Shown: positions 3,587-52,434 of the stretch, piece after piece
Position numbering within the stretch: the first letter of the stretch is position 1
Layout: each line of letters begins with the position of its first letter
Assembly (NCBI GenBank): GCA_031274525.1
Contig: JAISQA010000077.1
Span: 1,194 to 65,193, forward strand
Length of the DNA stretch: 64,000 nt
Source: Candidatus Margulisiibacteriota bacterium
Lineage (GTDB): Bacteria > Margulisbacteria > Termititenacia > Termititenacales > Termititenacaceae
Direction of reading: 5' to 3'
Notes under the pieces: model-generated
The model's input: only the letters and a program-made list of their open reading frames with translations
What the model was told of the DNA's origin: nothing
Database searches by the model: none
Position numbers and translations under genes: made by a program

Positions 3587-3727
3587 ATGCATGTCCTCCC
3601 GGATTGATTTTTACTGACTGATCCAGCCTAGCATAAATATAGATAAAAGTCTATAAAATTTAATGAATACAATCTATAAAGAAATGCCGACTAAATAACT
3701 AAGCTCTACAAAATAAGGAGGCGCTTT

Positions 3728-4114: not shown

Positions 4115-4230
4115 TTGCGTTTTACGGTGCATAGCACTGTATCGCTGTCCAATAAGAATTCTATAATTTTGTGCTTGTATGCGCTTTAATTGACATCGAT
4201 AGCCAGTAAAGTGTATAATTAATGCCAGTT

Positions 4231-4270
4231 AAGGGAGCACTGCGGAGCAGGACTCCCTTTATTATTTTGT
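4231..4270 (+). terminator. rho-independent terminator candidate after the HTH gene
   Basis: GC stem AAGGGAG..(loop with inner CTGC/GCAG pairing)..CTCCCTT followed by TATTATTTTGT. Confidence 0.4.
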
Positions 4271-5059: not shown

Positions 5060-5079
5060 TTCGCTTGTGAAAAAAAAAG

Positions 5080-11900: not shown

Positions 11901-14618
11901 TGGGCCGCGGAAACCTGGTACCTGATCGCCAAAATAAAAAATAACAGCGCTTTACCGGAAGTCATCAAAGAAATGCCGGTGGCTTTTGATGACAATACCA
12001 GCCAGCTGAATATTACCTCCAGCGAGCAAGTGATCTGGAATGTGCTGGAGGAAATGCTCAAAATTCTGGCGCAGACCGCGGATTATACCTACTATGACCG
12101 GAGTAATGAACTGCGCTTTATCGCCGGCGGAGCCGACGGCATGGTGTTTGAGTACCGGAACAAAGTGGTCAAAATACCTAACGAAAACTTTGATGTGGAT
12201 TTTTATGATGTGCTGAAGAATCTGCTCCTGCCCGGCCAAAAAATCATGCAGCGGCACGAATACGCTCAGCGTTTGGTCGAACATACGCTGATCGATAAAC
12301 TGACGGCTCAGCCGGCGCTGGACAGATTGATCCCGCATCTGCGCGCCTGGCCGGAAGCCAATAGTTTTATTCTGCGGCTGATTGCTCTGCTGGAAAATAA
12401 AGATTTTAAATCTTCCGGCTATCCGCTGGCTTTTGCCCGCGGACAGGGGTTGATCATTCCTATGTCCCGGCAGGAAGAACCTTTTCAGGCCGTTTATCGA
12501 GGCCGGACTTATCACTTTACCCGGGAAGATAATATTCTGGTCATGGCCAAGGCCGAAGTGCTGAGGAACAGACTGCGCGAGATTATTATTAAGAACGATC
12601 TGCCCGGCTTCCGATCCCTGCTCAAAGATGTGACGGATTTGATGCGCAGGCTGTGGAGGCGCGGTTTGTTCGATATGGACACCAATATTATCGCGGATCT
12701 GGGCTATTACAAAGGGAAGCTGTACCTGCTGGATCCCGGGGAGATTATCGACAATCCGGGTCTGGATATTTTGCAACATTCAAAAGAATATCTTACCCGC
12801 CGCACAGACTACATAGAATTGCGCGGCCTGCTGTCCGGGACTGCGCAGGCCAAAATAATGCTGGGGGAATACCGCAGTCAGATGTACGGCTTGTTCGATT
12901 ATATGCTTGCCGATCTGGAACAGGGCGGCAAGTATTTTAATTCAGATAAGGGTGATTTTCACCTGCAAAATGTAGCCATTATTCAGGAGGAATATACTCC
13001 GGTTACGGATTACCGCGGAATTAAACAGCATTATCTGTTTCTCTCCAGAGCCGGAGTGAATAAAAGATACACGCCTTTTCGGGAGCATCTGCCCCTGATC
13101 AAGGCTCAGCCGCTGGCGGACATCGCGTATCTTTCCAATCCCGGCGACGCGCAGGTGAAGCAGGTTCTGGATTATGAGGCTCTGCAAAAACCCTTTAAAG
13201 GAAATGTTTTGTACGCGGAGCGGGGCGGCCAGGGCTTTCGGGCAGGTTTATTGAGCCTGGCTGCCGGCGGCAAAGAATATATTGCTTTCAACGGCAGGCC
13301 GTTGATCAAATGGGTCATGGGCAGCAATGCGGCGCTGGTCAGAGAGCTGCACAGTCCCGACACGGCGGATCCGCTGCTGATTATCGCTTCTATAGATAAT
13401 TATATGGATTACCGTCAGGAAGATATTGACCGCATAAATCAGTATTTTGCCCTGCCGGAAGCGCCGGGCGCCTTTTTTTATGATCTGCCGGCTTACAGCC
13501 ACGCCGAAAGAATGCCGGAGACTCTGGGCGCAATGGCGCATTATTTCAAGACCTCGAAAGTTTTTTGGCGGGATTATAGATATTTCATAGACAGCATTCC
13601 TTTTATAGCCGGTTTTGCCCGGCGTAAAAATAATCTGTCCGAGACCATCTTAAAAGCCGCTCTGACTAACTGGCGGGCTTTTTATGGCTCCCCGGAGCAG
13701 GCCAGGCAGGACGGGGGGGGGGGGGGTATGCCTTTTGCCACCCAGACAGCGGCCCTGCTGAAACGTTTTATTTTGTATGCTTCCAATCAAAAAAGAGGCA
13801 TCAAAGCCCCGTACACGCTCATTTTCAGACAGTCTTTTCTCCAGGATTTACGGGAAAGCATCGGGCCTAAAATACCGGATTATGCCGGACACGAGCTTAC
13901 CTGGTTCAATCTGCTGTGCGCCTGGAAATATGATCCGGCCCTATGGAGCATGCTCAAGCCCCGGCTGCTGAGCGCCGCCGTCTGGCAGGATATTTATGAG
14001 ACGATGCGCAGGCTGGCCGTCAAACATCATATTGATCTGTCCGATCATCAGCAGAATAAGCTCCGGGTTTTTTACGGCGACTGGGCGGCTCTGGATAATC
14101 CTTTTTATGATATTGTGAAATTTTTCAAACGCAACAGCGCCAGGCTCGGAAACACGCCCATTTATGTGGAAAAAAGATTTTTGGCGCCGCGCAGCAGCGA
14201 AAATGAGCAGCGCCGGGAAAACCTGTTTACGCCCGCTTACTATGCCAGAATAATTGAAAATTGTGAAAACAATGATGTGGTTATTGTAGGCAATCCGGGA
14301 TACATTAAAGGCCGGATTAAAATTACGGCGCAGGATTTCCGTTTGCAGCAGTCCCAGCGCAAAACCCTCCTGTACGAAGTCAGCCTGCCGCCGGGCTATG
14401 TCATCGAGGTGCCGAAAAATCATATGCTGGTGCAGTTAACCGATCCGGATAAAACGCGCCATTATTATTCGATGACCCTGCGCCCGTTATCCCGCACGGA
14501 TCTCGCTAAAGAAATGGTTTACCGTTATGAGCTGGCGGAAAACAGCACTACCTATACGCCCCGGAAATACCAGCCCTACGAAGAATTTTTTAACGAACGC
14601 TTCCGGAGCCAGCGCTAA
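8907..14618 (+). CDS. giant (1903 aa) multidomain protein with two GT2 (GT-A fold) glycosyltransferase modules, a protein-kinase-like motif set and about 700 aa of unassigned C-terminal sequence
   Basis: GTG start with GAGAGGG Shine-Dalgarno. First GT2 module, around nt 9350-10200: IVFVFSVYRD..LLIAEDEACAEPDKST..VVYTDSDTSHD..IKDTQSGLKAL. Second, degenerate GT2 module, around nt 11000-11550: ends with VEDTQTGLKIV. Kinase-like motifs, around nt 12110-12750: Gly-loop-like IAGGADGMVFEYRNKVVKIP, later DMDTNIIADLGYY..LLDPGE resembling HxD..N/DFG. No transmembrane segment is evident. The recognisable motifs are on this strand, so the antisense ORFs in the track are rejected. Confidence 0.7.
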   Translation: MQRKQIAIVDLLQKAARFLANPFEEAVNFAGLLRLDIPAADKRAILGLSLKYKQYVETPKQTAGPTQLAPRLTEQEKEAYYLANKQRQTAAETARYRKLLREIAPLHDPLQYLAKAQAADFSGLDEYGAALVRQLIASRQAIAALDQKQTRKQAIVFVFSVYRDINRLKRPTETFTGENFLEVKCRQLAYLFHDMRYFDWRLLIAEDEACAEPDKSTVEAINRLLDNPFHLSRFAPKVQTFFPEDLLPELEQYQKRSGIFKSIFDAAEPRERARLFTEASHKGGMIHLLLRKALTYRPAAVVYTDSDTSHDLGVSGLLLKELYSGRADAVIASRRVPGAVVANKSRERELYSAGYHLLAETLFGLGIKDTQSGLKALRPQAVETVQSRLTELGMSFEVELLKLLKKDGWTIEEIPAVWRDSPYESKSSDQAQAMAAGLLRVYREIYRPETTAELPVDLPARLQAEPEYPALRRLAEDPELTAFTRNSFRLFSAVQVKDFRDFLRQAQLFIERLAYNHDAITQASLEELLAAGRRCFAILRRRKLFGFLAGNYPDLGPVLELLRKDRKYLKIIFPLFFGRNIISALLGVDGAAALQRKETLSGWLAHYAADIQAVRSFKPAPLVRQEYTPRQLERIAAAALSLRNTLPGRERPLQIGLALLHNRKIDKTALEILRTQVQDLSRYIQDLPQLQFELLIAGADKHRLTPAEEQSHLKSLNTAQIRVSYLPVSDDFEKGKFIRYTWNVLDHQRTLSATERGNAQYYAPDLLAFMDYSYKISILETLPMLAWVMENYRNPEDAVLIGSRRLDLSEVLHKSQALELRSMALNILVKSLFPKLHGVEDTQTGLKIVGRNVWHRVDATPWSADGYGWEIELLNKIAVIYDRDKEFKERVDRLAALPAKHEKLLKKLLNESFWTAENPGRAGRDALAQSVARYKKIIRDLQKETFWTTQNNMPAVDALLGQLYSAAQDYDRIIQELLEALDPAVHGPALNDLFQETSWAAETWYLIAKIKNNSALPEVIKEMPVAFDDNTSQLNITSSEQVIWNVLEEMLKILAQTADYTYYDRSNELRFIAGGADGMVFEYRNKVVKIPNENFDVDFYDVLKNLLLPGQKIMQRHEYAQRLVEHTLIDKLTAQPALDRLIPHLRAWPEANSFILRLIALLENKDFKSSGYPLAFARGQGLIIPMSRQEEPFQAVYRGRTYHFTREDNILVMAKAEVLRNRLREIIIKNDLPGFRSLLKDVTDLMRRLWRRGLFDMDTNIIADLGYYKGKLYLLDPGEIIDNPGLDILQHSKEYLTRRTDYIELRGLLSGTAQAKIMLGEYRSQMYGLFDYMLADLEQGGKYFNSDKGDFHLQNVAIIQEEYTPVTDYRGIKQHYLFLSRAGVNKRYTPFREHLPLIKAQPLADIAYLSNPGDAQVKQVLDYEALQKPFKGNVLYAERGGQGFRAGLLSLAAGGKEYIAFNGRPLIKWVMGSNAALVRELHSPDTADPLLIIASIDNYMDYRQEDIDRINQYFALPEAPGAFFYDLPAYSHAERMPETLGAMAHYFKTSKVFWRDYRYFIDSIPFIAGFARRKNNLSETILKAALTNWRAFYGSPEQARQDGGGGGMPFATQTAALLKRFILYASNQKRGIKAPYTLIFRQSFLQDLRESIGPKIPDYAGHELTWFNLLCAWKYDPALWSMLKPRLLSAAVWQDIYETMRRLAVKHHIDLSDHQQNKLRVFYGDWAALDNPFYDIVKFFKRNSARLGNTPIYVEKRFLAPRSSENEQRRENLFTPAYYARIIENCENNDVVIVGNPGYIKGRIKITAQDFRLQQSQRKTLLYEVSLPPGYVIEVPKNHMLVQLTDPDKTRHYYSMTLRPLSRTDLAKEMVYRYELAENSTTYTPRKYQPYEEFFNERFRSQR
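13713..13726 (+). repeat. G14 homopolymeric tract inside the giant CDS (encodes DGGGGGM)
   Basis: Direct count of 14 consecutive G at 13713-13726. It is in frame as sequenced. Confidence 0.9.
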
Positions 14619-14723: not shown

Positions 14724-14915
14724 ATGAAAACACTGGATTGTGCCTGCCCGAATACCGACTGCGCAGATCACGGCGAATGTTCGGCCTGCGTTGCCAAACA
14801 CAGAGCCGCAGACAGCCTGACTTATTGTTTTTTTCCGAACAATGACGGCGACAAAAGTTTAGAAAATTTTTATCATCATTTAGAAAAACGTTTTACAAAG
14901 GAGACCGCAGAATGA
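14724..14915 (+). CDS. small cysteine-rich protein (CxCPx3Cx2HGxCx2C motif; putative metal-binding 'zf-like' domain)
   Basis: MKTLDCACPNTDCADHGECSACVAKH.. with 63 aa from the internal ATG. Its stop TGA overlaps the efp ATG (ATGA), which implies translational coupling. The start is uncertain and the ORF extends upstream to 14637. Confidence 0.4.
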   Translation: MKTLDCACPNTDCADHGECSACVAKHRAADSLTYCFFPNNDGDKSLENFYHHLEKRFTKETAE

Positions 14916-15478
14916 AAGAAGCTATCGACTGCAAACCCGGGCAGATTATCAAAAAAGACGGACAGCTCTTTGTCGTGATGAGCTGGTACCCGCACAAAAT
15001 CGGCGACCGCGGCGGCATCGTGGTGGATATGAAGCTCAAAAATCTGGACACCGGAAATATTTCCATGGTGCAGCCCCGCTCTCAGGACAAATTTGACGAT
15101 GTGGTGCTGGAACGCAAACAGGTGCAGTATTCCTATCAAGACGGCGAGATGTACGTGTTTATGGACAGGGCAACCTTTGACCAGATCTCCATCAATAAAG
15201 ATTTGATCGGCGATAATTTAGGTTTTTTAAGAGAAAACATGGAGCTGGATATTTTTTTCCACGAAGGCCGGGCTGTCTCTGTCGTATTCCCGACTTTTGT
15301 CGAAATGGAGATCAGCTATACCGAGAATGTGGCGCGCGGCGACACCTCCGGCAAAGTGATGAAGAAGGCCCAGCTGGAAAACTCCGGCTACGAGATAGAC
15401 GTGCCCAGCTTTTGCAATATCGGCGACAAAATAAAGATCGACACGCGCACGCAGGAGTACGTCGAAAGAGTAAAATAA
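14912..15478 (+). CDS. efp: elongation factor P
   Basis: Full-length similarity to EF-P, including the conserved C-terminal RGDTSGKVMKKAQLENSG...IDTRTQEYVERVK. The loop sequence HKIGDRGG replaces the common KPGKG motif. Confidence 0.9.
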   Translation: MKEAIDCKPGQIIKKDGQLFVVMSWYPHKIGDRGGIVVDMKLKNLDTGNISMVQPRSQDKFDDVVLERKQVQYSYQDGEMYVFMDRATFDQISINKDLIGDNLGFLRENMELDIFFHEGRAVSVVFPTFVEMEISYTENVARGDTSGKVMKKAQLENSGYEIDVPSFCNIGDKIKIDTRTQEYVERVK

Positions 15479-15707
15479 GCGGTTTAATCAGCGTCCAGCT
15501 TGTCAGAAACCGCCGCAGTTGCTATACTTTTTGCCTGTTTTTGCGGGCTTAGCTAACGGCGCTACGCTTGTGAAATTTGACGCACTTCACTGTCGCTTGC
15601 GACCGAGCCTGTATACCTATCAGGCGAGGAAGTCCTAGTGCGCAAAGGCGCACGGAGGTGAAGTTCAGGGCAGTTGGCAGTCTGTGTAGAATATGTGCTT
15701 CGTTTCT

Positions 15708-15783
15708 GCGGGCTTAGCTCAGTTGGTAGAGCGCGACCTTGCCAAGGTCGAGGTCGTCGGTTCGAGCCCGATAGCCCGCTCCA
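15708..15783 (+). tRNA. tRNA-Gly (anticodon GCC)
   Basis: Cloverleaf with 7-bp acceptor stem GCGGGCT/AGCCCGC, D-loop AGTTGGTAGAGC, anticodon stem-loop CGACC-TTGCCAA-GGTCG, T-arm GTCGG-TTCGAGC-CCGAT and encoded CCA. It is close to E. coli tRNA-Gly(GCC). Confidence 0.9.
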
Positions 15784-15918
15784 AATCACAAATAACGTTC
15801 ATAATTTAAAAAACAGTCTGTACAATTAGGCCGCCACAAACACTTTGCATAGCCTTAATGGAACATAAGCAAAATGTTTTCCCAACATTGATAATTTAAT
15901 GCTAAAATTATTTTATAT

Positions 15919-18900
15919 ATGGACAAAGCCGCCGCTAAACAAAGTATAGCCGAACTGGTCAGAAGATTTGGCGAAAACATAGCTTCCTATAAAAACGGTG
16001 TGTATAACGAAACTCAAACTAGAAGAGAATTTATCGACCCGTTCTTTGAAGCACTGGGCTGGGATGTGGATAATAAACAGGGCCTGGCGGAAGCCTACAA
16101 AGAAGTAATCCACGAATATAAAATAGATAATGTCAAACAGGATTTTCGCCAGTCACCGGATTATTGTTTTACTATCTACGGGCAGGAAAAATTTTTTGTC
16201 GAGGCCAAGAAACCCAGCGTAAATATCAAACAGGATGTCGCTCCAGCCTATCAGGTGAGAAGTTATGCGTGGAGCGCCGGACTGCCTATCTCTATTGTTA
16301 CCGATTTTGAGGAATTTGCGGTATATGACTGTGTGCCAAAACCCAATGCCAGAGACAAAGTGGAAACGGCGAGAATTGAATACCTGACTTTTAGAGAATA
16401 TATCGATAAATTCGATTTTCTCTGGGACACCTTCTCCAAAGAGCGGGTCTTGCAGGGCAGTTTTGATAAATATGTTGCCGCAGATAAAGGCAATCGCGGC
16501 AAAGAAACTGTCGGCAGGGAATTTCTAAAACTTATTGAGGAATGGCGCAGAAGCTTGGCCAATAACATCGCCGCTAATAATGACCTGTCCGATGAGGAGC
16601 TGAATTATGCTGTTCAGCAGACTATCGACAGGATAATTTTTTTGATTATCTGCGAAGATAGAAAAATTGAACCAGCCAATAGGTTAAAAGAATTAGCCGA
16701 AACCCCCAATATCTATAAAAATCTTTTCCGGCTTTTTAGCGAGGCAGACGAAAAATATAATTCCGGTCTGTTCGATTTCCGCAAAGACACTATTTCTGCC
16801 AGAATTGTTATTGATGATAAAAAATTAAAAACTCTGCTGGACGATTTATATAATAGCCCGTATCAGTTTTCGCGGATACCTGTTGAAATACTGGGCAGTG
16901 TGTACGAGCAATTTTTGGGTAAAGTTATCCGCAAAACCAAGACTGCGGCGGTCATTGACGATAAGCCGGAAGTAAAAGTCGCCGGCGGTGTTTTTTACAC
17001 GCCGCAATATGTGGTGAACTACATTGTCAGAAATACTGTTGGCACTGTTATCAGCGGCAAAACTCCGGCGGAAATAAGCAGGATAAAAATAGTTGACCCG
17101 GCCTGCGGCAGCGGCTCTTTTCTGATCGGCGCGTATAAATATCTGCTGGACTATCACCAAAAATATTATCTGGACAATCCGAAAAAAAACAGTCCGTTGA
17201 CCCCGGCCGGAGAACTGACCACAGCGGAAAAGAAAAGGATTTTGCTGAACAATCTCTACGGCGTGGACATCGACGCGCAGGCGGTGGAAGTAACCAAACT
17301 GAGTTTGTTATTGCAGGCTCTGGACGGCGAGACAGAGGCATCCATTAACACCCAATTATCTTTGCTCAAAGAACGGGTTTTGCCCACGCTGGACAATAAC
17401 ATCAAGTGCGGAAATTCGCTGGTCTCCAACGAGGGAACACTTTTTACAGTGGATAATTCGGTGAAGCCATTCGATTGGAAAATAAATTTTCCGGCAGTTT
17501 TCGCGCAGGCCGACCGCCAATGCGGCCGGCACGCCATCGCGGGCAGAGAATGTCCCGCTCGGCAGGGCGGCTTTGATATTGTCATCGGCAATCCGCCGTA
17601 TGTCAAAGAATACACAGCCAGAACCGCTTTTGAGCCGGTGAAAAATTCACATCTGGCCAGATATTATCAGGGCAAAATGGATTTATGGTATTTCTTTGTC
17701 TGCTGGGGATTGGATATTCTGAAAGAAAAAGGCCTCTTGAGTTTTATCGCGCCGAGCAACTGGATAACCAATGCCGGAGCTTCGATATTGCGGAATAAAG
17801 TTCTAACTGAAACAGAAATACAGAGATATTTTGATTTTAATGATTATAAAGTCTTTGAAAATGCTGGTATTCAGACAATGATATTCTGTTTGCAAAAGAA
17901 AACACCGCGCAGACAATATGCTTTTACATACAATAAGGTTACAGATAAAAAAATCGATGAGACTGCGTTAAAAAATGTGCTTATGGGCAGTGAAAAAAAT
18001 CCGGCTATTGAACAAGTGAAAATAAGAGTCCAGCCGGAAATAATGAAAGATAGACTGATTGCTTTTGTTGATGCAAGTATTGATGAAATATTAGAGAAAA
18101 TCATTAAAGCGAGTAATTATTTACTTACTGAAAAAAATGTCGCGCAAGGTATTGTTTGCCCACAAGATTTTGTTATAAAGAAACACTTAGAAGAATTGAA
18201 AAATTCAAGCATAAAAGAAAAAGATGGTGTTTTTATAATATCTTCTGAAGAGCTTCGAAAGCTTAAATTATCAAGCGCAGAAAGAAAAATTATTAAGCCA
18301 TATTATACTACTGAACAATTACACAACTATTATGGTGATGACAAAAACATATCGTGGGTGATTTATTCAGATATGAATGTAAGAAAGAATATTAAAGATT
18401 ATCCTAATATAAAAGCTCATCTTGATAAATATAAAAAGATTATAACTTCTGATTTTGCGCCTTATGGCTTGCACAGAGCAAGAGAACAGGCGTTTTTTGA
18501 GGGTAAAAAAATAATCTCTTTGCGTAAGACTGCCCGACCTTGTTTTACTTATACGGATTTTCCCTGTTATGTTTCGCAAACCTATTTTTCTATCAAACCA
18601 CAGGATATAAACTTGAAATATCTAACAGGCTTGCTTAACTCCTCGCTGGTTAATTTCTGGCTTTATCACAAAGGCAAAAAACAGGGTGAACAGTTGCAGG
18701 TCGACAAAGAGCCTCTGCTACAAATACCTATCGTAAAAACTGATGATAAGCAGGTAGAAAACACCATAATTAAATGCGTGGATGAGATTATCGCATTGAA
18801 AAAACAGCTGCAGGGTGTTTCGCTGGCAAATCAGAAAGAGCAGATAGAAAATAGGATTAAGTTTTTGGAGAATAGGATTGATGAGGTGGTTTTCAAGTTA

Positions 18901-18942
18901 TATGGATTAGTGGATGATGATATAAAAATTGTTAATAAATGA
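15919..18942 (+). CDS. type IIG (MmeI-like) restriction-modification enzyme: N-terminal PD-(D/E)xK endonuclease fused to gamma-class N6-adenine DNA methyltransferase and target-recognition domain
   Basis: Endonuclease motif: SPDYCFTIYGQEKFFVEAKKP (D..E.K). MTase motif I: IVDPACGSGSFL. Motif IV: IGNPPY. Length of 1007 aa and domain order match the MmeI/Eco57I-type single-chain enzymes. Confidence 0.85.
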   Translation: MDKAAAKQSIAELVRRFGENIASYKNGVYNETQTRREFIDPFFEALGWDVDNKQGLAEAYKEVIHEYKIDNVKQDFRQSPDYCFTIYGQEKFFVEAKKPSVNIKQDVAPAYQVRSYAWSAGLPISIVTDFEEFAVYDCVPKPNARDKVETARIEYLTFREYIDKFDFLWDTFSKERVLQGSFDKYVAADKGNRGKETVGREFLKLIEEWRRSLANNIAANNDLSDEELNYAVQQTIDRIIFLIICEDRKIEPANRLKELAETPNIYKNLFRLFSEADEKYNSGLFDFRKDTISARIVIDDKKLKTLLDDLYNSPYQFSRIPVEILGSVYEQFLGKVIRKTKTAAVIDDKPEVKVAGGVFYTPQYVVNYIVRNTVGTVISGKTPAEISRIKIVDPACGSGSFLIGAYKYLLDYHQKYYLDNPKKNSPLTPAGELTTAEKKRILLNNLYGVDIDAQAVEVTKLSLLLQALDGETEASINTQLSLLKERVLPTLDNNIKCGNSLVSNEGTLFTVDNSVKPFDWKINFPAVFAQADRQCGRHAIAGRECPARQGGFDIVIGNPPYVKEYTARTAFEPVKNSHLARYYQGKMDLWYFFVCWGLDILKEKGLLSFIAPSNWITNAGASILRNKVLTETEIQRYFDFNDYKVFENAGIQTMIFCLQKKTPRRQYAFTYNKVTDKKIDETALKNVLMGSEKNPAIEQVKIRVQPEIMKDRLIAFVDASIDEILEKIIKASNYLLTEKNVAQGIVCPQDFVIKKHLEELKNSSIKEKDGVFIISSEELRKLKLSSAERKIIKPYYTTEQLHNYYGDDKNISWVIYSDMNVRKNIKDYPNIKAHLDKYKKIITSDFAPYGLHRAREQAFFEGKKIISLRKTARPCFTYTDFPCYVSQTYFSIKPQDINLKYLTGLLNSSLVNFWLYHKGKKQGEQLQVDKEPLLQIPIVKTDDKQVENTIIKCVDEIIALKKQLQGVSLANQKEQIENRIKFLENRIDEVVFKLYGLVDDDIKIVNK

Positions 18943-19472
18943 AGATGCGAAAAATTAAGAAATTTTTAAATAACCAATGGACAATAGGTATTGGTACTGG
19001 GCTTACAGTATCTTTTATCATCTTGATAATTAACTCGGTAATACAAAGAATAAGCATACTGCAAAGCATATATAGTATTTTGTCATTGATTATTAAGTTT
19101 GTTTGGTGTGTATTAACATTTGGCATTCCAGTATGGCTTTTAATTATAGTGGGTTTAACATTGATACTAATACTAAAAATTATCCCAGAGCCTCAAGAAC
19201 AATGGGAAAAATATACTCTTGGGTATTATAAAAACTGGCTTTTTGAATGGAGTTACGTTGAGGATGCGTTTGGTCAAACGAGGATTAATAACTTGCGACC
19301 TGTTTGTACCAAGTGTCGATGTGATTTATCAACAAATTATCATGAGCTCTATTGTCCTAAATGTTCTAATAAATACTATATACTAGAATCGAATACATTA
19401 AGTGATTTGGAAAAAGTTATTATTGGAAATCTAAAAACCGGAGAATATAAATTAATAGATAAAAAGGAGTGA
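18939..19472 (+). CDS. small membrane protein (3 predicted TM helices) with C-terminal CxxC...CxxC zinc-ribbon
   Basis: Start ATG overlaps the RM stop codon (ATGA). Hydrophobic segments: IGIGTGLTVSFIILIINSVI, ILSLIIKFVWCVLTFGIPVWLLIIVGLTLILILKII. C-terminal CTKCRC...CPKC. Confidence 0.5.
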   Translation: MKMRKIKKFLNNQWTIGIGTGLTVSFIILIINSVIQRISILQSIYSILSLIIKFVWCVLTFGIPVWLLIIVGLTLILILKIIPEPQEQWEKYTLGYYKNWLFEWSYVEDAFGQTRINNLRPVCTKCRCDLSTNYHELYCPKCSNKYYILESNTLSDLEKVIIGNLKTGEYKLIDKKE

Positions 19473-19479
19473 TTTTAGT

Positions 19480-20502
19480 ATGTCTAAGAAAATACCAATA
19501 ATTGGCTACACTCACTTCTTCCAAGACATTAAACAGCGTATTAAATCCGCTCAATATGAAGCCTTAAAATCTGTAAATAAAGAGATGATTCGACTGTACT
19601 GGGACATTGGTAAAAAAATTGTAGATAGTCAGCAAAAACACGGCTGGGGAAAATCGATTGTGGAATCTTTGGCTAAAGATTTACAAGCTGAATTTTCTGG
19701 TATTTCTGGTTTTTCAGCAGATAATTTGTGGCGTATGCGGAAATTCTATCTGAATTATAAAAATAAGCCAAAACTTGCACCATTGGTGCAAGAAATTGCC
19801 TGGGCGCATAACATTGTTATCCTAGAGAAATGCAAAGACGATCTAGCTAGAGAATTTTATATCCGTATGACAAAGAAGTTTGGCTGGACGAAAAATGTAC
19901 TTATTCATCAGATTGAGAATCAGAGTTATGAGAAAACTTTGTTAAATCAAACAAATTTTAGTAAGACCTTACCAGCTAAGATAAAAGGACAGGCACAACT
20001 TGCTGTCCGTGATGAATATACTTTTGACTTTCTGGAATTATCAGATGAACACAGAGAAAAAGATCTTGAACGAGCAATGATAGCCAAAGTAAATCAATTT
20101 CTGATCGAAATGGGTGGTGCCTTTGCCTTCATGGGTAATCAATATCGATTAGAAATAGACGGTGAAGAATATTTTATAGATTTATTATTGTATCATCGCC
20201 GATTGAAATGTTTAGTGGCAATAGAATTAAAAATCGGCAAATTTTTACCGGAATATGTCGGGAAGATGCAGTTTTATCTCTCGGCATTAGATAATGTTAT
20301 TAAAGAAAAAACCGAAAATCCGTCTATCGGAATAATCTTATGCAAAGAGAAAAATCGCACTATTGTTGAATATGCGCTAAAAAATAGCAGAAAACCTATT
20401 GCCGTGGCAAATTATCGAATAACATCAACCCTGCCCAAAGAATTACGCAAAGAACTTCCGGCGCCGGATCAAATCAGACAGATTTTAGAAAAGATGCAAT
20501 AA
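19480..20502 (+). CDS. DUF1016/YhcG-family PD-(D/E)xK nuclease
   Basis: C-terminal YFIDLLLYHRRLKCLVAIELKIGKFLPEYVGKMQFYLSALD matches the YhcG/DUF1016 nuclease core (D..ELK). The N-terminal helical domain is typical of the family. Confidence 0.75.
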   Translation: MSKKIPIIGYTHFFQDIKQRIKSAQYEALKSVNKEMIRLYWDIGKKIVDSQQKHGWGKSIVESLAKDLQAEFSGISGFSADNLWRMRKFYLNYKNKPKLAPLVQEIAWAHNIVILEKCKDDLAREFYIRMTKKFGWTKNVLIHQIENQSYEKTLLNQTNFSKTLPAKIKGQAQLAVRDEYTFDFLELSDEHREKDLERAMIAKVNQFLIEMGGAFAFMGNQYRLEIDGEEYFIDLLLYHRRLKCLVAIELKIGKFLPEYVGKMQFYLSALDNVIKEKTENPSIGIILCKEKNRTIVEYALKNSRKPIAVANYRITSTLPKELRKELPAPDQIRQILEKMQ

Positions 20503-20521
20503 TTTATAAGAGGATAATTCA

Positions 20522-21688
20522 ATGGACAAAGTATTATTATATTATCGGCAATATAAAGATGCACCAGAATATATTTTAGCCGAGTATATTTCCACAAGAA
20601 AAATAAAGATAAGTTTTTATAAAAGAAGTCCGTGGTATTTCGAATATGAAGATGAGCAGGATTATAAAACGATGGATTATTCCTGCACATTTAAGAATAA
20701 AGATGCTACAAAATTTATAAGCCTGTTTACCAAGAATAAAAACCCGCAAGAGTTTTTACAAAGGCTCAAAGCAAAGTTTGCCAAAAGTACTTCACTGGAA
20801 AATATCTTAGAGTTTGCAGATAAACATAAGATAAATTATAAACTTTATGATAATTACTACCCGGAATGGCCAGAAAATATATTTCCATTAGATTATAGAT
20901 ATAAAAAACTCTATGACGAAAAAGGTCAATTTGTTATTCCAGAATTATACGAACCGCCTCAAAATGGTATCAGAAAACTCTTCGATTCTCGTGGAAACTT
21001 ATTTCTAGAAGCCAATTATGTACAAGGCAAGAAAAATGGTTTGTGTACTATATATGAGAATAATAAGATTAAGAAAGAGCGTTATTATGTAGACGATTTA
21101 TTGAGTGGTGTCTATAAAGAATATCATTCAAACGGTAAAGTCAAAATTGAGATGCTTTATACAAATGGTAATCGTGATGGTTTCGCTAAAGAGTACCATC
21201 CAAATGGTCGTATAAAACTGGATTCTTTTTTCAAAGATGATTTACAGGAATGTGTTTCAAACGAATACTATGACAATGGGAAATTAAAACTGGAATCAAC
21301 CTGGGCACGAGATAAAAGCGAAGGCGTAGTAATCACCTACGATATAAATGGAAATATTGAAAGTAAACTGCCTCGCAAGCACGGAAAATTAGACGGTGTA
21401 ATAAGAGATTATTATCCCAATGGTAAATTAAAGTGGGTAGAGGATTATAAAAAAGGACAAAGACACGGTAAGTCTATTAAGTATTATAAATCTGGTAAAA
21501 TAGCGTGTATACAGCATTGGCGTAATGACAAGAAGCGTAATAGCCTCGGCTATTACCAAAATGGAAATGTTTATTATAAATTTTTATTTGATAAAAACGG
21601 CAAAAGACACGGCACATCAAAAACCTATCATAAAAGCGGTAAAATACGAACAATAACAATATACAAAAATGGTAAAGTTGATGATTAG
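20522..21688 (+). CDS. MORN-variant (YwqK-family) repeat protein with a 150-aa unassigned N-terminal domain
   Basis: About 10 tandem repeats of the form Y..NGK.K.E..Y..GK..G....Y (e.g. YYPNGKLKWVEDYKKGQRHGKSIKYYKSGK). Confidence 0.65.
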   Translation: MDKVLLYYRQYKDAPEYILAEYISTRKIKISFYKRSPWYFEYEDEQDYKTMDYSCTFKNKDATKFISLFTKNKNPQEFLQRLKAKFAKSTSLENILEFADKHKINYKLYDNYYPEWPENIFPLDYRYKKLYDEKGQFVIPELYEPPQNGIRKLFDSRGNLFLEANYVQGKKNGLCTIYENNKIKKERYYVDDLLSGVYKEYHSNGKVKIEMLYTNGNRDGFAKEYHPNGRIKLDSFFKDDLQECVSNEYYDNGKLKLESTWARDKSEGVVITYDINGNIESKLPRKHGKLDGVIRDYYPNGKLKWVEDYKKGQRHGKSIKYYKSGKIACIQHWRNDKKRNSLGYYQNGNVYYKFLFDKNGKRHGTSKTYHKSGKIRTITIYKNGKVDD

Positions 21689-21711
21689 ATTTCAAATAGG
21701 AAATATAAATA

Positions 21712-22626
21712 ATGGCATTATTTAAGATAAATAATTTAAGCGTCGAGAAACTATCTGCCAGCCGGCCTGATCTAGAGCGTAGTTTACAGAAGCTCTTTGA
21801 AAACAATTTAGAAGAAATCCTAAATATTATTTTTCTAGCGCACGAATATACAACGAGTTTTGGCGGTAGGATTGATACTCTTGGCATAGATAAGAACGGA
21901 GCCCCTTGTATAATTGAATATAAAAAAACTAAAGATGATAATGTTATTAATCAAGGGTTGTCTTACTTGCGCTGGTTGCTTGACCATAAAGCTGATTTCG
22001 AAAAACTATGTAAAACTCATAAAGTAAATACTGATATTGATTGGGATTCACCGCGAGTTATTTGTATTGCTGAAAGTTATAATAAATTTGATATTGATAC
22101 AGCAGATATTTTACCGATTAAGATTGAATTGTTATGTTATAAACTTTATGAGGATAATATCTTATATATTGAGGCAGAAAATCATCAGAAAGTAAAAATT
22201 TCTACATCTGGCATAACAAAAAAAGCTAAACAATATAAAGAACAGGCCGAACATTTACAAAAGATTTATTCTATTGATGATCACCTCATTGGGATTAATA
22301 AGCAAACTAAAGAGTTATTTTATAACTTACGTGAAAAAATTATCTCGCTTGATAAAAACATTGTTGAGGAGGCAAAAGCTAAATATATTGCCTATAAAAC
22401 AGCAACAAATTTCACGGATATTGTGATTCAACGATCCGGATTGAAAATATTTATAAATATCAAAAGCGGACAACTTATTGATCCACAAGGATTGGCGCGT
22501 GATTTAACAAAACCAAAACATATCGGACATTGGGGGAATGGTGATTATGAAACAACTCTTGAAAAAGAAAATGAACTTGAAACAGTTTTTGCTTTAATCA
22601 AACAAGGATATGATTTAAATAAATAG
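21712..22626 (+). CDS. NucS/DUF91-like PD-(D/E)xK nuclease-fold protein with a C-terminal domain shared with the Bro-N protein at 33690..34319 (DUF5655-like)
   Basis: GRIDTLGIDKNGAPCIIEYKK..VINQGLSYLRWL fits the RecB-like core of NucS/DUF91. The C-terminal KAKYIAYKTATNF...HIGHWGNGDYETTLE aligns with the C-terminus of the 33690..34319 protein. Confidence 0.5.
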   Translation: MALFKINNLSVEKLSASRPDLERSLQKLFENNLEEILNIIFLAHEYTTSFGGRIDTLGIDKNGAPCIIEYKKTKDDNVINQGLSYLRWLLDHKADFEKLCKTHKVNTDIDWDSPRVICIAESYNKFDIDTADILPIKIELLCYKLYEDNILYIEAENHQKVKISTSGITKKAKQYKEQAEHLQKIYSIDDHLIGINKQTKELFYNLREKIISLDKNIVEEAKAKYIAYKTATNFTDIVIQRSGLKIFINIKSGQLIDPQGLARDLTKPKHIGHWGNGDYETTLEKENELETVFALIKQGYDLNK

Positions 22627-22793
22627 ATAAAAATTTCACTTTTTATTTACAAGTAGCTCACAAACACTCACGTCAAGGGTAATACAGAGCGACTAAAACT
22701 GCCCGGAAATCCGTGGAACAAAATTGTTTCGGGGATAATTCCGGGAAGTTAAAACGCCTGTAAATTCGCGCCATTTCCTCTATAATATCTGAC

Positions 22794-23234
22794 ATGCAAA
22801 CCCTCGCGCTGGCCGCCGATCACGGCGGATTTGAGTTAAAAGAAATTATCAAACAATTCCTGCAGGATGCAGGCGCTTATCAAATCCTCGATCTGGGCAC
22901 GAATTCCGCGGATCCCGTAGACTATCCCGCCTACGGCCGCAAAGCCGCGGAAGCGGTGGCCGGCGGACAGGCCGAGCGCGGGATAATATTCTGCGGCACC
23001 GGTATCGGGATCTCTATCGCCGCCAACAAAGTTAAGGGCATACGCGCGGCCAATTGCCTTACGGAATTTATGGCGGAGATGTCCCGCCGCCACAATGACG
23101 CCAATATTCTGGCGCTGGGCGGGCGCACTGTCGAACCGGAGCTGGCCCAAAAAATTGTCAAAGTCTGGCTGAACACGCCGTTTGCGGGCGGCCGCCATGA
23201 GCGGCGGGTCAAACAGCTTGACGCGCTGGACTGA
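22794..23234 (+). CDS. rpiB: ribose-5-phosphate isomerase B
   Basis: 146 aa with RpiB/LacAB motifs: HGGFELKE, IFCGTGIGISIAANK, and the C-terminal segment. Confidence 0.85.
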   Translation: MQTLALAADHGGFELKEIIKQFLQDAGAYQILDLGTNSADPVDYPAYGRKAAEAVAGGQAERGIIFCGTGIGISIAANKVKGIRAANCLTEFMAEMSRRHNDANILALGGRTVEPELAQKIVKVWLNTPFAGGRHERRVKQLDALD

Positions 23235-24720
23235 CCGCCGCGGCAGGAGCGGCCGGCTGCGCCTGTTTTACCGCCGGTAGTTTAATGGTGAAGGTCGTGC
23301 CGAAATTCACTTCGGATTCTACCTTAATGGCCCCGCCGTGTTCCTCGACGATCTTGCGCGCAATGGACAGGCCAAGTCCGGTGCCCTTTTGTTTAGTCGT
23401 GAAGAACGGCTGAAACAATTTTTCCTGATCCTCTCTGGAGATGCCGCCGCCGTTGTCTTTAACCATTATGTACACCGACCGGTCGGTCTGTCTGGCGCTC
23501 AGTTCCACATAGCCCTTGAACGGCCGGCCCGGCGGCATGGCCTGAATAGCATTGAGCAGCATATTGAGAATGACCTGCATAAATTTCTGCGTGTCGGCTC
23601 TGACCCGCACGCCGTCCTCGATGTTCAGCGCAATCTCCACATTTTCCCGGCGCGCCTGAGCTTTCACCAGTTTAAAAATTTTCTCCGCAATGTCCGTAAA
23701 ATTAACCGTCTGCATCTTGATCTCCGGCGTCCGCGCAAAACTTAAAAATTCCTCGATTATGGTCTCCAGCCGGCCGATCTCCGCGCCGATAATTGGCCCG
23801 AATTCGTCCCAGAACTGCCGGCTGCCTTTGTGCTCTTCCATCAGCTGGGTGAACATCTTCAGCGCGGTCAGGGGATTTTTTATCTCATGCGCTATGCCGG
23901 CGACCATGGTGCCCAGCGAGGACACGCGGTTTAAGCGCGTCAATTCCTTGATCTTCTCTCTGGCGTCAGCATACAGCCCGGCATTCTCAATAGCCACGGC
24001 CAGCTGTCCGGCCAGCGTCATCAAGAGCGCCATATTTAAATTGTGCAGCGGCCGTTTGGACAGCACATTGTCTATGGTCAAAAGGCCGATGACTTTTTCT
24101 TTCGCCTGCATCGGCACGGCCACATAGGTGTCGGCGCCCAGCCGTTTGACATACTCGGTGTTATAGGTGGGATGCGGCACCAGCACCGGATTGCCCGCTT
24201 TGAAGATCCGACCCAGCACGGAATTGTCAACCTGCAGTACCATGCCGCTGAAATCCTGAGCCTGCTGCTGGCCGGCCGCATAGCCCGCCGCGGAACGCAG
24301 CTCCTTGCGCTGCTCGTCATAGAGAAAAAGGATGCCCCGATCCACCTTAACCGCCCGGAGCACCGTCTGAATAACGCTGCTGTATATCTCCTGAATATCC
24401 AGCGTCGAATTAACCAGCCGCGACACTTCCAGCAGCATGGTCAATTCCCCCACCCGTTTTTGGGAGGTCTGGAGCAGGCGGATTATCTGCAAGACCAGCG
24501 CTGCGATCAGGGCGGTCAGGCCGACGGCCAGCGCAAAATATTCCAGCCGGTGCCGCAGCAAAGCCGCGCTGTAAAAAAGCGCCCCGCTATAGGCCAGCGC
24601 CAGCAGGCCAAGCAGGATAAAATCGCGCAAATTAGGCTGGACTTTGTGCTGTAAAGAAGTAAGCGGACGCATAATCCCCCCGAATAAATTATTATACCAT
24701 ACCATATAATACGCGTACAA
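23209..24720 (-). CDS. GAF-domain sensor histidine kinase (membrane-anchored, HisKA + HATPase_c)
   Basis: Two N-terminal TM segments, a GAF-like region and an H-box IAHEIKNPLTAL. The N, G1 and G2 boxes are present: NMLLNAIQAM, DNGGGI, GTGLGL. Confidence 0.8.
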   Translation of the reverse strand: MYAYYMVWYNNLFGGIMRPLTSLQHKVQPNLRDFILLGLLALAYSGALFYSAALLRHRLEYFALAVGLTALIAALVLQIIRLLQTSQKRVGELTMLLEVSRLVNSTLDIQEIYSSVIQTVLRAVKVDRGILFLYDEQRKELRSAAGYAAGQQQAQDFSGMVLQVDNSVLGRIFKAGNPVLVPHPTYNTEYVKRLGADTYVAVPMQAKEKVIGLLTIDNVLSKRPLHNLNMALLMTLAGQLAVAIENAGLYADAREKIKELTRLNRVSSLGTMVAGIAHEIKNPLTALKMFTQLMEEHKGSRQFWDEFGPIIGAEIGRLETIIEEFLSFARTPEIKMQTVNFTDIAEKIFKLVKAQARRENVEIALNIEDGVRVRADTQKFMQVILNMLLNAIQAMPPGRPFKGYVELSARQTDRSVYIMVKDNGGGISREDQEKLFQPFFTTKQKGTGLGLSIARKIVEEHGGAIKVESEVNFGTTFTIKLPAVKQAQPAAPAAAVSPARQAV

Positions 24721-24895
24721 TAAGAAAGTATAATTTAACAGGAACTTAGTAAAAATTAACTGTTATCTGCATGGCTATTTTTTTTATATTTACCCGGTTA
24801 TTGCTATTGACAAAAACAGGTTTTATTATATAATCTATTAGAAATAATTATTAGATATATTTACATTGTATTTAAAATTATTTCCTGTTATAATT

Positions 24896-24924
24896 AATTA
24901 AACAATTAATTAAGTTGTTTAATT
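24896..24924 (+). promoter_or_regulatory. 29-bp near-perfect palindrome (AATTAAACAA-TTAATTAA-G-TTGTTTAATT), candidate operator for the downstream RHH gene
   Basis: The 10-bp arms are exact reverse complements. The central TTAATTAA is itself palindromic. It lies 45 nt upstream of the ATG at 24969 within a very AT-rich 250-bp intergenic region. Confidence 0.4.
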
Positions 24925-24968
24925 ATTTAATGACCGGTGCGCTGCGGTCATTGCAGACAGGAGAGGTT

Positions 24969-25199
24969 ATGAGCAAGATTTTGTATGTATCTGATGAACT
25001 GCATCAGAAATTAAAATTTCTGGCGACCAAACTGGGAATTACGATGCAGGAGGCGACGGACGAGGCGATCGCGCGCTGGATCAGACAGCGGGAGAGCGAG
25101 GAAAAACAAAAAGAGCTTTTGCTGAACCGCATCGAGCAAAAACTCAGCAGCGAGGAAAAGCGGCTTCTGGAAGCGCTCCTCAGTAAACGCAACAATTAG
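24969..25199 (+). CDS. small ribbon-helix-helix-like DNA-binding protein (CopG/Arc-type) with charged coiled C-terminus
   Basis: AGGAGAG Shine-Dalgarno before the ATG. The N-terminal KILYVSDELHQKLKFLATKLGITMQEATDEAIARWI pattern is a beta-strand followed by two helices. Confidence 0.45.
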   Translation: MSKILYVSDELHQKLKFLATKLGITMQEATDEAIARWIRQRESEEKQKELLLNRIEQKLSSEEKRLLEALLSKRNN

Positions 25200-25233
25200 C
25201 TTATCTCTTTTTCGGGGGGAAAGGAGATAAAAT

Positions 25234-25266
25234 AAAAAACCCGGCTGGTTTAGCCGGGTTTTTTTT
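25234..25266. terminator. bidirectional rho-independent terminator
   Basis: An A6 run, then CCCGGCT-GGTTT-AGCCGGG hairpin, then a T8 run, between two convergent genes. Confidence 0.75.
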
Positions 25267-25284
25267 AACTTAATCCTCCGGCCG

Positions 25285-25941
25285 TTAATTAATGGTCTTG
25301 CCCGCCAGCCTGCCGTACAGATACGCCGAGGCATAGAAAGACACCGGCAGAGTGAAGAGCAAACCAAGGCCCAGACACAACAGGCCGGCTAAATTAAAAA
25401 TACCGATCGCCAGACTCCAGAGGAAAACAGGCCAGCGCTGACCGGATACCAGTTTACGGCTGGCCGCCAGCGCCTGGGTTACAGAAAGTTTTTTGTCGAT
25501 AACCAGCAGCGGAGCGAAAGCATACGTGATAGTCCAGACCAGACCGGGGATGACCAGCAGTATATAGCCGCCCAGTATGATCAAGGAGTATAAGATATTC
25601 GTGCCCAGCATAGTCCAGAAATATTTTAAATCAGCCCAGGAAAAATATTTCAGCGCCGGCTTCTGTCCGTTCAGCACAGCCAGCAGGATTTTGATCCAGC
25701 CAATGCTGATCAAAACGTTCACCACAATGCTGAACAGGCAGATAATCAGGCCAAAAATACCGGTCAACACCTGCAGCACACAAAGCAACCAGACCACCGC
25801 CTCGCAAAGCACCGCAAGGCCGATAGTGGGCCAGAAAAATTCCCCGGTTTTCTTCATCCCGTAACTAAACGAATCCGCGATCGAAAACTTCCAGCCGCCG
25901 CTGGTTTGCACCGCAGCTTCTTGCCCTGATTTTTTTACCAT
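25285..25941 (-). CDS. DUF975-like integral membrane protein
   Basis: Five or six hydrophobic helices. I take the start at the internal ATG (MVKKSGQE, 25941), because the longer ORF would run through the 3' end of the upstream gene. Confidence 0.45.
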   Translation of the reverse strand: MVKKSGQEAAVQTSGGWKFSIADSFSYGMKKTGEFFWPTIGLAVLCEAVVWLLCVLQVLTGIFGLIICLFSIVVNVLISIGWIKILLAVLNGQKPALKYFSWADLKYFWTMLGTNILYSLIILGGYILLVIPGLVWTITYAFAPLLVIDKKLSVTQALAASRKLVSGQRWPVFLWSLAIGIFNLAGLLCLGLGLLFTLPVSFYASAYLYGRLAGKTIN

Positions 25942-27233: not shown

Positions 27234-28016
27234 TCAGACCTCTGCTAAATTAATTCTGGTTATTTTCGTGCATTTGCCCTGCACATCGATTTCCAGATAC
27301 ACGGCGTTGAAAACCAGCACGCCGTTTTCGACAACGTCAAACTTAGCTTTGAGGCCGGTCAAGAATCTTTTTTGCGCGGCCTCAGCGCTCATGCCGAGAT
27401 TGGAATCCCGCGCACCGGCCATGCCGGCATCCGTAAGGTAACCGGTGCCGCCGGGCAGGATCTGCTCGTCCGCGGTCTGCACATGCGTGTGCGTGCCCAG
27501 CACAGCGGACACCCGGCCGTCCAGATAAAAACCGAGAGCCTTTTTCTCCGAAGTAGCTTCGGCGTGAAAATCCACCAGCGTCGCGTCCGCCGGCGTCTTG
27601 CGTAAAAAATTATCCATAGTCTGGAAGGGACAATCCAGCGGCGTCTCGATAAAAGTCCGGCCCAGCACATTAACCACCGCCACCCGCATACCCTCGATGT
27701 CCAGCAGCACAAATCCCGCTCCGTATGTACATTTGGGATAATTCAGCGGCCGCGCCAGCAAAGGCATATTGACTATATCCTTGAAAATCTCTTTTTTGTC
27801 CCAGATATGATTGCCGCCGGTCAGGACTTGAATGCCCGGCTTATCCATCAACTCCTGATACACCGGCAAAGTCAGGCCAAACCCGCCCGCCGCGTTCTCG
27901 GCATTGGCAATGACCAGATTGGGCGCGTACTGTTCCCGCAGCTCCGGCAGGACTCTGGCCGCGGCTTTGCGCCCCGCCCCGCCGACAATATCGCCGATGA
28001 AGAGGACTTTTAGCAT
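27234..28016 (-). CDS. ymdB: 2',3'-cyclic-nucleotide 2'-phosphodiesterase YmdB (metallophosphoesterase)
   Basis: MLKVLFIGDIVG...ANAENAAGGFG...GGNHIWD...GTHTHVQTAD motifs of the YmdB/TIGR00282 family. It lies downstream of rny, as in Bacillus. Confidence 0.85.
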   Translation of the reverse strand: MLKVLFIGDIVGGAGRKAAARVLPELREQYAPNLVIANAENAAGGFGLTLPVYQELMDKPGIQVLTGGNHIWDKKEIFKDIVNMPLLARPLNYPKCTYGAGFVLLDIEGMRVAVVNVLGRTFIETPLDCPFQTMDNFLRKTPADATLVDFHAEATSEKKALGFYLDGRVSAVLGTHTHVQTADEQILPGGTGYLTDAGMAGARDSNLGMSAEAAQKRFLTGLKAKFDVVENGVLVFNAVYLEIDVQGKCTKITRINLAEV

Positions 28017-28037
28017 AAAAAATATCTATTCATTTAA

Positions 28038-28577: not shown

Positions 28578-28590
28578 ACATCTCCTTTAT

Positions 28591-52319: not shown

Positions 52320-52348
52320 AAGCACACTAAGTGCCGAAGGCCGGACTC
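52320..52348. repeat. 29-bp direct repeat copy 2 (overlaps the tRNA-Leu 3' end)
   Basis: Same 29-mer. Positions 52331..52348 are the tRNA T-arm/acceptor 3' strand. Confidence 0.85.
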
Positions 52349-52418: not shown

Positions 52419-52434
52419 CGCGAAACTTCTGGCC

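Follow-up and report, generated by a model that had tools for sequence, protein, structure and literature searches.

A segment of about 7 kilobases (kb), rich in A and T, lies directly 3' of a tRNA-Gly(GCC) gene in a Candidatus Margulisiibacteriota bacterium (assembly GCA_031274525.1, contig JAISQA010000077.1), at positions 15784-22790 of the 64,000-nucleotide (nt) stretch analyzed here, which is referred to as the window. This segment is probably a defence island of composite make-up that was acquired horizontally and is at present non-autonomous; it occupies the variable DNA 3' of tRNA-Gly(GCC) in an uncultured, Termititenax-related genome. Judging from its letters, the island is composite and not one homogeneous 7-kb insert, and would have been built in at least two steps. 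The scaffold of its restriction-modification (RM) gene, which has an intermediate composition, appears to circulate in the host clade, and the specificity domain of that gene appears to have been exchanged here for a far AT-richer one.

The AT-rich composition of the island is real and far past chance. Its G+C content is 0.356, against 0.535 in the remainder of the window; 1-kb windows outside the island average 0.534 (standard deviation 0.045), and the lowest value among 7-kb windows that do not overlap it is 0.499. On the left, G+C drops most steeply at 15782 (measured with 400-nt flanks), i.e., at the tRNA 3' end. On the right, core G+C is regained in the 167-nt spacer between the last stop codon (22626) and the start of rpiB (22794), a gene with a G+C content of 0.59 and a G+C at third codon positions (GC3) of 0.67. 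The original prediction, made from the sequence alone, had placed an AT-rich segment of this size directly 3' of the tRNA and the return to core composition just before rpiB, and it was right on both counts. Codon bias, which it had proposed to examine together with sliding-window G+C, shifts just as clearly: GC3 is 0.42 in the RM gene and 0.26, 0.31, 0.28 and 0.23, in order, in the four genes downstream, versus 0.62-0.70 in the core neighbours (a gene for a protein of 1903 amino acids, efp, rpiB and a histidine kinase gene). The dinucleotide signature distance of 17751-22700 is 106, compared to 35 ± 12 (maximum 59) in 5-kb pieces of the core. In order along the window, the features of the island and its flanks are:

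14912-15478, plus strand: efp, encoding elongation factor P (EF-P), the left core flank; Pfam EFP, EFP_N and Elong-fact-P_C
15708-15783, plus strand: tRNA-Gly(GCC), called by ARAGORN and by Rfam (tRNA, 68 bits); the left edge of the island coincides with its 3' end
15784-15918, plus strand: left intergenic region, with promoter-like sites ahead of the RM gene
15835-15844 and 22659-22668, plus strand: exact 10-nt direct repeat, CACAAACACT, a weak candidate insertion boundary
15919-18942, plus strand: predicted Type IIG RM enzyme of 1007 amino acids, with a PD-ExK nuclease, a gamma-class N6-adenine methyltransferase and a TaqI_C-type target-recognition domain (TRD)
17505-17561, plus strand: 57-nt in-frame insertion in the methyltransferase domain, with G or C at 42 of its 57 bases
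17784-18620, plus strand: AT-rich part of the RM gene that specifies target recognition (about residues 620-900), apparently swapped
18939-19472, plus strand: small membrane zinc-ribbon protein of 177 amino acids, the start overlapping the RM stop codon (ATGA)
19480-20502, plus strand: DUF1016/YhcG PD-(D/E)xK nuclease family protein, PADLOC candidate PDC-S02
20522-21688, plus strand: MORN_2 (YwqK-type) repeat protein with a unique 140-residue N-terminal region
21712-22626, plus strand: DUF5655 protein with an N-terminal PD-(D/E)xK (NucS-C-like) domain, PADLOC candidate PDC-S18
22627-22793, plus strand: right intergenic region, within which G+C climbs back to the core level
22794-23234, plus strand: rpiB (ribose-5-phosphate isomerase B), the right core flank; Pfam LacAB_rpiB, 193.6 bits

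Could the segment simply be native DNA, inherited vertically, with a low G+C content imposed by function or expression? The window is heterogeneous to some extent, and short low-G+C patches also occur at 3601-5200, 24401-25300 and 27901-28700. These patches likewise encode accessory-type genes (an HTH protein, a DUF3800 protein), and the island genes belong to families typical of mobile defence cargo. GC3, a measure taken at synonymous sites, lies 0.3-0.45 away from that of the core genes, and next to efp or tRNA-Gly these genes are missing from all four nearest relatives. A native origin is thus very improbable.

The composition of the island is more complex than an abrupt switch at the tRNA, which is how the original prediction had described it. 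The steepest drop is indeed found there, but G+C falls at first only to about 0.42-0.49; within the RM gene, at about 17784, it drops once more and by as much, to about 0.30-0.35. Because of this second drop, the island is not uniform in composition, and its strong AT-richness is confined to the TRD of the RM enzyme and the four downstream genes. GC3 follows the same course along the RM gene: it is 0.45 in codons 1-390, 0.62 in codons 390-570, 0.18-0.32 in codons 630-870 and again 0.45 in codons 870-1007, and upstream of the target-recognition segment it spans 0.45-0.65.

The same division is seen when the RM enzyme is compared with its closest homologs, P0002-P0004, which are 72% identical to it overall and one of which comes from another metagenome-assembled Margulisbacteria genome. 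Protein identity to these three is 84-94% over residues 1-500, drops to 16-60% over residues 651-900, and is back at 82-86% over residues 901-950; residues 801-900 are nearer to two other proteins, P0005 and P0006 (74-82%). The scaffold DNA, from the start codon on (15918-17512), has about 79% identity to the homologous loci. All four RM genes have a GC3 of about 0.4-0.5 followed by 0.2-0.3, where the core of the host has about 0.6-0.7. The homologous genes have different surroundings. One stands alone as a low-G+C island of a single gene, with UPF0182 and MatE genes on either side (L081); another has Rex ahead of it and an AlbA_2 (Schlafen-like) gene behind it (L082); and the third is located ahead of an Abi_C gene and a gene without known family (L083). 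Since the scaffold is found at these three other loci with differing neighbours, the position 3' of the RM gene would be a variable slot for defence-type cargo. At its two ends, 1-197 and 4963-5159, the contig carrying the third locus (RM, Abi_C and the gene without known family) has exactly the same sequence in reverse-complement orientation. Amplification or assembly may have produced this as an artefact, or else the island may be situated between inverted copies of a host gene.

The mosaic RM gene bears directly on a rival account of the island, in which all 7 kb came as one element out of one AT-rich donor, entered in one tRNA-integrase event and then lost the integrase and the distal attachment site. 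Such an element would explain why G+C falls most sharply right at the tRNA 3' end and why five genes are co-oriented and tightly packed, and the sister species Candidatus Termititenax aidoneus (L001) bears partial tRNA 3' copies after the same tRNA, as integrative elements leave. It does not account for a change-point within the RM gene that separates a G+C of 0.435 (15784-17750) from one of 0.323 (17751-22700), nor for a scaffold that is shared at about 79% DNA identity with other loci of the host clade when the TRD is not. Neither an integrase (in the genes scanned) nor a tRNA repeat was found in the window. A single element is therefore unlikely. What remains of the one foreign 7-kb insert first proposed is its foreign-looking DNA; the mosaic RM gene, with a scaffold common to the clade at other loci, speaks against one insert.

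Alternatively, the AT-rich block might be a chimera, formed when DNA of another organism was joined in during assembly or binning. The source is a metagenome-assembled contig (NCBI lists a protein identical to the RM enzyme, P0001, for a metagenome-assembled Candidatus Margulisbacteria genome), and the related contig L083 has the artefact-like inverted duplication of its ends described above. On the other hand, with core-like sequence on both sides, two precise chimeric joins would be needed, and independent related contigs repeat the same G+C pattern in their RM genes. There is very little chance of such a chimera, because the RM reading frame stays open across the change in composition and the sequence beyond is again typical of the clade, the last 100 residues, beyond the AT-rich TRD, being again 82-86% identical to Margulisbacteria homologs.

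How, then, would a composite island have come about? In the history that best fits these data, related Margulisbacteria exchange an RM scaffold that is intermediate in composition and inserts at different chromosomal sites. Its TRD would later, in the present genome, have been replaced by recombination with much AT-richer DNA, and the four AT-rich downstream genes most probably came along with the TRD. As for the arrival at the present site, the likeliest route would be site-specific integration at the tRNA 3' end, after which both the integrase and the distal repeat disappeared. A second possibility is that the block entered through an insertion linked to the RM gene, with the 10-nt repeat as its target duplication.

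The identity of the host and the variability of the site emerge from a comparison with relatives. EF-P of the window is 86-90% identical to that of Ca. Termititenax aidoneus, Ca. Termititenax persephonae and two metagenome contigs; the values for the two named species (L001 and L002) are 86-88%, and the next best matches, from Burkholderiales, do not exceed 48%. The island genes are absent next to efp in the four closest available relatives (L001, L002, L087 and L088). Their presence at the same site would have argued for an ancestral segment, as the original prediction had pointed out. In Ca. T. aidoneus, efp and tRNA-Gly are followed, about 540 nt on, by ftsW, murD and mraY; in L087, a metagenome contig with 90% EF-P identity, they are followed by 1.5 kb of unrelated DNA with few open reading frames (ORFs). 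Homology of the window to both stops at the tRNA-Gly 3' end. In L002 and L088, efp has no tRNA-Gly beside it. Contiguity of efp, tRNA-Gly and rpiB in relatives, which the original prediction had raised, could not be shown, right-hand synteny being different in each.

The region downstream of the tRNA in Ca. T. aidoneus (L001 10805-11310) holds three partial copies of the tRNA-Gly 3' part, of 18, 15 and 12-17 nt. Two of these fragments are split in the T-loop by a common insert of about 70 nt with inverted repeats, and the last is followed by AATCA, the same as after tRNA-Gly in the window. The fragments may be attachment-site (att) scars of earlier integrations, or a small repeat element; the ~70-nt insert was searched for in the window and not found. 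With the island absent from every available relative, a different flank in each, and these possible scars in L001, the tRNA-Gly 3' flank looks like a hotspot of insertion and rearrangement.

Further observations concern the same neighbourhood. Homologs of window segments 5270-8007 and 5657-8007, about 72% identical at the nucleotide level, lie inverted after efp in L002 (10589-13285) and L088 (480-2770), respectively, which reveals a local rearrangement between species. An 18-nt copy of the tRNA-Gly 5' end, of which 6 nt belong to its upstream flank, is located at 15537-15554, 165 nt before the tRNA, and similar 5' fragments are found upstream of tRNA-Gly in Ca. T. aidoneus (L001 10600-10692).

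No integrase, recombinase or duplicated tRNA 3' end had been noticed in the original prediction, and none came to light here. Integrase, recombinase and transposase families had no match in the five island proteins or in the flanking and low-G+C-patch genes that were scanned (other genes of the window were not scanned). The 3' 32-mer of tRNA-Gly has no second copy in the window at up to 3 mismatches, the 3' 15-mer has no match inside the island, and the right intergenic region (22627-22793) contains no tRNA-like sequence. At Rfam gathering thresholds, the tRNA alone was matched in or beside the island. When the DNA of the whole island was compared with plasmid and phage collections, the DUF1016 gene and one short stretch of the methyltransferase gene matched, and nothing else.

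When the two intergenic regions are shuffled, a repeat as long as the 10-nt CACAAACACT arises with a probability of about 0.03-0.07. DNA homology to the L083 RM locus starts at 15845, immediately after the left copy of CACAAACACT. The repeat was considered as a proven target duplication and dropped, being statistically marginal. The island resembles known tRNA-associated islands in its exact tRNA 3' boundary, odd composition, defence cargo, variable site and the att-like fragments in a sister species; it differs from them in being only 7 kb long, composite, and without an integrase or a tRNA 3' direct repeat.

The RM enzyme is, by its predicted nuclease, methyltransferase and TRD, a full-length Type IIG enzyme. 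The PADLOC model REase_MTase_IIG (PDLC03604) matches with 593 bits, residues 1-1004 aligning to positions 1-1003 of the 1011 in the model. The N-terminal nuclease is recognized as Pfam HSDR_N (35.8 bits, cut-off 25.1; residues 29-141) and has an intact PD-ExK motif (PD at 80-81, E95-A-K97). The methyltransferase domain matches Pfam Eco57I (138 bits) and N6_Mtase (69.9 bits), and both its S-adenosylmethionine-binding motif I (DPACGSGSF, 393-401) and its catalytic NPPY (558-561) are intact. Target recognition at the C-terminus is assigned to Pfam TaqI_C (32.5 bits, cut-off 26.5). By family membership, such an enzyme would methylate its own recognition sites and cut unmethylated incoming DNA. A modular TRD is typical of the Type IIG class.

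The enzyme has the organization of Type IIG RM enzymes of the Eco57I/TaqI_C type, with nuclease, helical linker, methyltransferase and C-terminal TRD in a single chain, and departs from it by an insertion of about 19 residues that is unique to the enzyme in the window (ADRQCGRHAIAGRECPARQ, residues 531-549). The closest solved structures by sequence, CamA, BseCI, PglX/BrxX and M.TaqI, cover the methyltransferase and TRD parts only. The 57 nt that encode the insertion are flanked by GCAGG repeats and hold two short palindromes; they are missing from the three closest RM genes (L081-L083), and no further copy exists in the window. The added residues stop 9 residues before NPPY, a location at which they may well bear on whether the RM enzyme methylates and cleaves.

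The original prediction had called the enzyme MmeI-like. Type IIG and the order of the domains stand, but membership in the MmeI family does not. The likeness consists of the domain order and a match to MmeI_Mtase (62 bits, cut-off 27). By contrast, MmeI_N reaches 21.7 bits, under its cut-off of 27, and Eco57I beats MmeI_Mtase over the same stretch. MmeI_hel, MmeI_TRD and MmeI_C had no hits in the RM protein (Pfam, E ≤ 0.01), the TRD being of the TaqI_C type, and there was no MmeI chain among the solved structures retrieved with it (E ≤ 0.001). The enzyme is thus like MmeI in outline and not a member of its family. An identity as PglX of a bacteriophage exclusion (BREX) system was also rejected, the BREX_1_MTaseX score being 107.6 bits versus an NCBIfam cut-off of 500; PglZ and BrxC are not among the five island proteins by Pfam and PADLOC.

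Five co-oriented ORFs fill the island, and the gene types given in the original prediction agree on the whole with profile searches in Pfam and PADLOC. PADLOC, a defence-system database that it had named, matched REase_MTase_IIG, PDC-S02 and PDC-S18. The RM and zinc-ribbon genes overlap by 4 nt, the remaining gaps between island genes are 7-23 nt, and no terminator-like site occurs on the plus strand in these gaps. Promoter-like hexamers, which are matches to the consensus only, are located ahead of the RM gene at 15798-15826 and 15879-15908. Transcription probably runs from the RM gene through the four closely spaced genes after it.

Tight packing of this kind could mean that the five genes form one multi-gene defence system, in which the RM enzyme has obligatory partners. 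Elsewhere, DUF1016 and DUF5655 genes sit in RM operons, and close homologs of the zinc-ribbon gene come after a methyltransferase gene, as would be expected of such partners. An obligatory five-gene system is nevertheless quite unlikely, because the closest RM homologs are solitary (L081) or have unrelated partners (AlbA_2 in L082, Abi_C in L083). Besides, PADLOC treats the DUF1016 and DUF5655 proteins as single-gene candidates, the MORN_2 protein is without close relatives, and distant members of the zinc-ribbon family occur in islands without an adjacent methyltransferase. Within a composite island, the DUF1016/PDC-S02 and DUF5655/PDC-S18 genes would most likely be independent accessory or back-up defence genes, of a kind that recurs in or beside RM operons.

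The most novel element of the island is a member of an unannotated family of zinc-ribbon membrane proteins. The 177-residue member encoded here, whose gene appears from the overlap with the RM stop codon to be translationally coupled to the RM gene, has three predicted transmembrane helices and a C-terminal four-cysteine zinc ribbon, with CxxC motifs at 123 and 139, and matches no Pfam, NCBIfam or PADLOC family. An AlphaFold 2 model (mean predicted local distance difference test score 88.8) consists of three membrane helices, a beta zinc-ribbon domain and C-terminal helices; fold searches with the model gave generic zinc-ribbon matches only. By profile search the family comprises 548 representative clusters, 162 of them at E ≤ 1e-10, and the members listed are mostly 170-200 residues long. 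W104 and the four cysteines are invariant in an alignment of 65 sequences. No match to the protein or to two of its relatives turned up in searches of phage, plasmid and IMG/VR collections.

Two close homologs (47-50% identity) are each encoded directly 3' of a gene for a 575-residue N6_N4 Type II methyltransferase. More distant members are found in integrase/AlpA islands with FRG (PDC-S15), SMODS-like or QueC-like genes, or beside a Type I RM system. It is conceivable, although doubtful, that the protein is an unrecognized partner or effector of DNA-modification and defence modules, with a sizeable unannotated family behind it; this reading rests on five genomic contexts. One possible role would be that of a membrane-anchored sensor, exclusion factor or abortive-infection factor, working with the upstream methyltransferase or RM enzyme.

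The idea of a constant nuclease partner for the zinc-ribbon protein was dropped, since the upstream genes in L174 and L168 do not fit. Upstream of the zinc-ribbon gene in L174 is an Endonuclease_NS protein, which has, by eye, a lipoprotein-type N-terminal signal and may be exported. The corresponding protein in L168, of 313 residues, has no family hit and shares nothing with the L174 nuclease; by eye it looks like a replication-initiation protein. Both 575-residue methyltransferases (L084 1440-3167 and L086 2428-4155) have a C-terminal extension of about 230 residues without family assignment. A resemblance of this tail to Mrr-like nucleases, seen by eye (GD.GLDG...IQVKR), was confirmed neither by Pfam nor by PADLOC and is not claimed.

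The DUF1016 protein is a strong match to its family, with 162.7 bits for Pfam DUF1016_N, 217.2 bits for YhcG_C and a full-length match to PDC-S02 at 497 bits, and it carries a D...ELK motif. Its gene is 66-71% identical in nucleotide sequence to DUF1016 genes of plasmids. DUF1016 genes are significantly enriched beside RM genes, among them Type I and Cj0031-like Type IIG ones (PMC9881135).

The DUF5655 protein matches PDC-S18 with 300 bits over residues 2-301 and Pfam DUF5655 with 39.4 bits (cut-off 24), and has the motif D55...E69-x-K71. A homolog is encoded between hsdS and hsdR of a Type I RM operon on the Acinetobacter plasmid pDETAB1. This protein had been named a NucS-like nuclease, which did not survive closer comparison. 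Pfam NucS_C scores 16.7 bits, below its cut-off of 24, and over 45 residues; the NCBIfam NucS model scores 18.2 against a cut-off of 216; and Pfam and NCBIfam reveal no NucS N-terminal domain. The likeness is one of architecture only: the protein is a member of DUF5655/PDC-S18, and NucS endonuclease was rejected as its identity. Like other DUF1016 and DUF5655 genes that are embedded in RM loci, those of the island have strong hidden Markov model matches and are placed downstream of an RM gene. The island differs in having the two together, and in combining them with MORN_2 and membrane zinc-ribbon proteins.

The MORN_2 protein, with 96.2 bits for the Pfam repeats (cut-off 29.6), resembles immunity-type (YwqK) proteins, and NCBI names an identical protein a YwqK family antitoxin. 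It has the repeats in common with the YwqK-type immunity proteins, but differs from them by its unique N-terminal region and by the distance of its homologs, the nearest of which are about 30% identical, over the repeats only. There is no YwqJ/LXG-type toxin gene adjacent to it, and the island holds no toxin-domain protein by Pfam.

Is the island, then, a defence island in more than name? The description as a horizontally acquired island of defence type is supported, and so are the types of gene, but only for the RM enzyme has the class been validated in defence. For PDC-S02 and PDC-S18, candidate status comes from the company they keep, and several points weigh against the reading of the segment as an acquired, composite island engaged in defence. 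An anti-phage role for PDC-S02, PDC-S18, the MORN_2 protein and the zinc-ribbon protein is that of candidates, and one PDC-S02 representative gave E. coli B no protection from T4, T5 and T7 (PMC12881386). The 19-residue insertion just ahead of NPPY might impair the methyltransferase. What ties the cargo genes to the TRD swap is their shared composition only, and they could have arrived separately. Neither a same-species genome (EF-P, RpiB, the RM protein and the zinc-ribbon protein had no exact counterpart in the contig index) nor a clean tRNA-Gly-rpiB empty site was found, so that an insertion at this position is read from composition and from non-syntenic relatives. Finally, no integrase, transposase or tRNA repeat backs any one mechanism, and CACAAACACT, being marginal, is a lead.

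Taken alone, the island adds one more small, immobile example to the defence islands of tRNA-linked variable sites and leaves the general picture unchanged. It does record traffic of defence genes in Termititenax-related Margulisbacteria, a lineage known from metagenomes only. The composition of the RM gene would display its own history, that of a clade-resident scaffold with a freshly swapped, AT-rich specificity domain. As such, it appears to offer a clear natural example of the diversification of Type IIG specificity, and of how cargo can be carried in after it. The unannotated family of zinc-ribbon membrane proteins, occurring beside methyltransferase genes, is a cheap candidate for defence screens.

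A few other features of the window deserve mention. The low-G+C patch at 3601-5200 (minimum 0.35) encodes a helix-turn-helix (HTH) protein weakly similar to PADLOC RmrA and a DUF3800 protein, and adjoins a protein with a faint hit to the phage baseplate domain Gp10_C; it is probably another small accessory insert. The short low-G+C patches at 24401-25300 and 27901-28700 contain ORFs of 94 and 179 amino acids without a Pfam family. The ORF of 1903 amino acids at 8907-14618, directly upstream of a small DUF6485-like ORF and efp, has a core-like composition and no Pfam match at E ≤ 0.01. Ordinary core features are a bacterial RNase P RNA (class A) at 47469-47791 on the minus strand (209 bits) and a tRNA-Leu(TAA) at 52331-52419.

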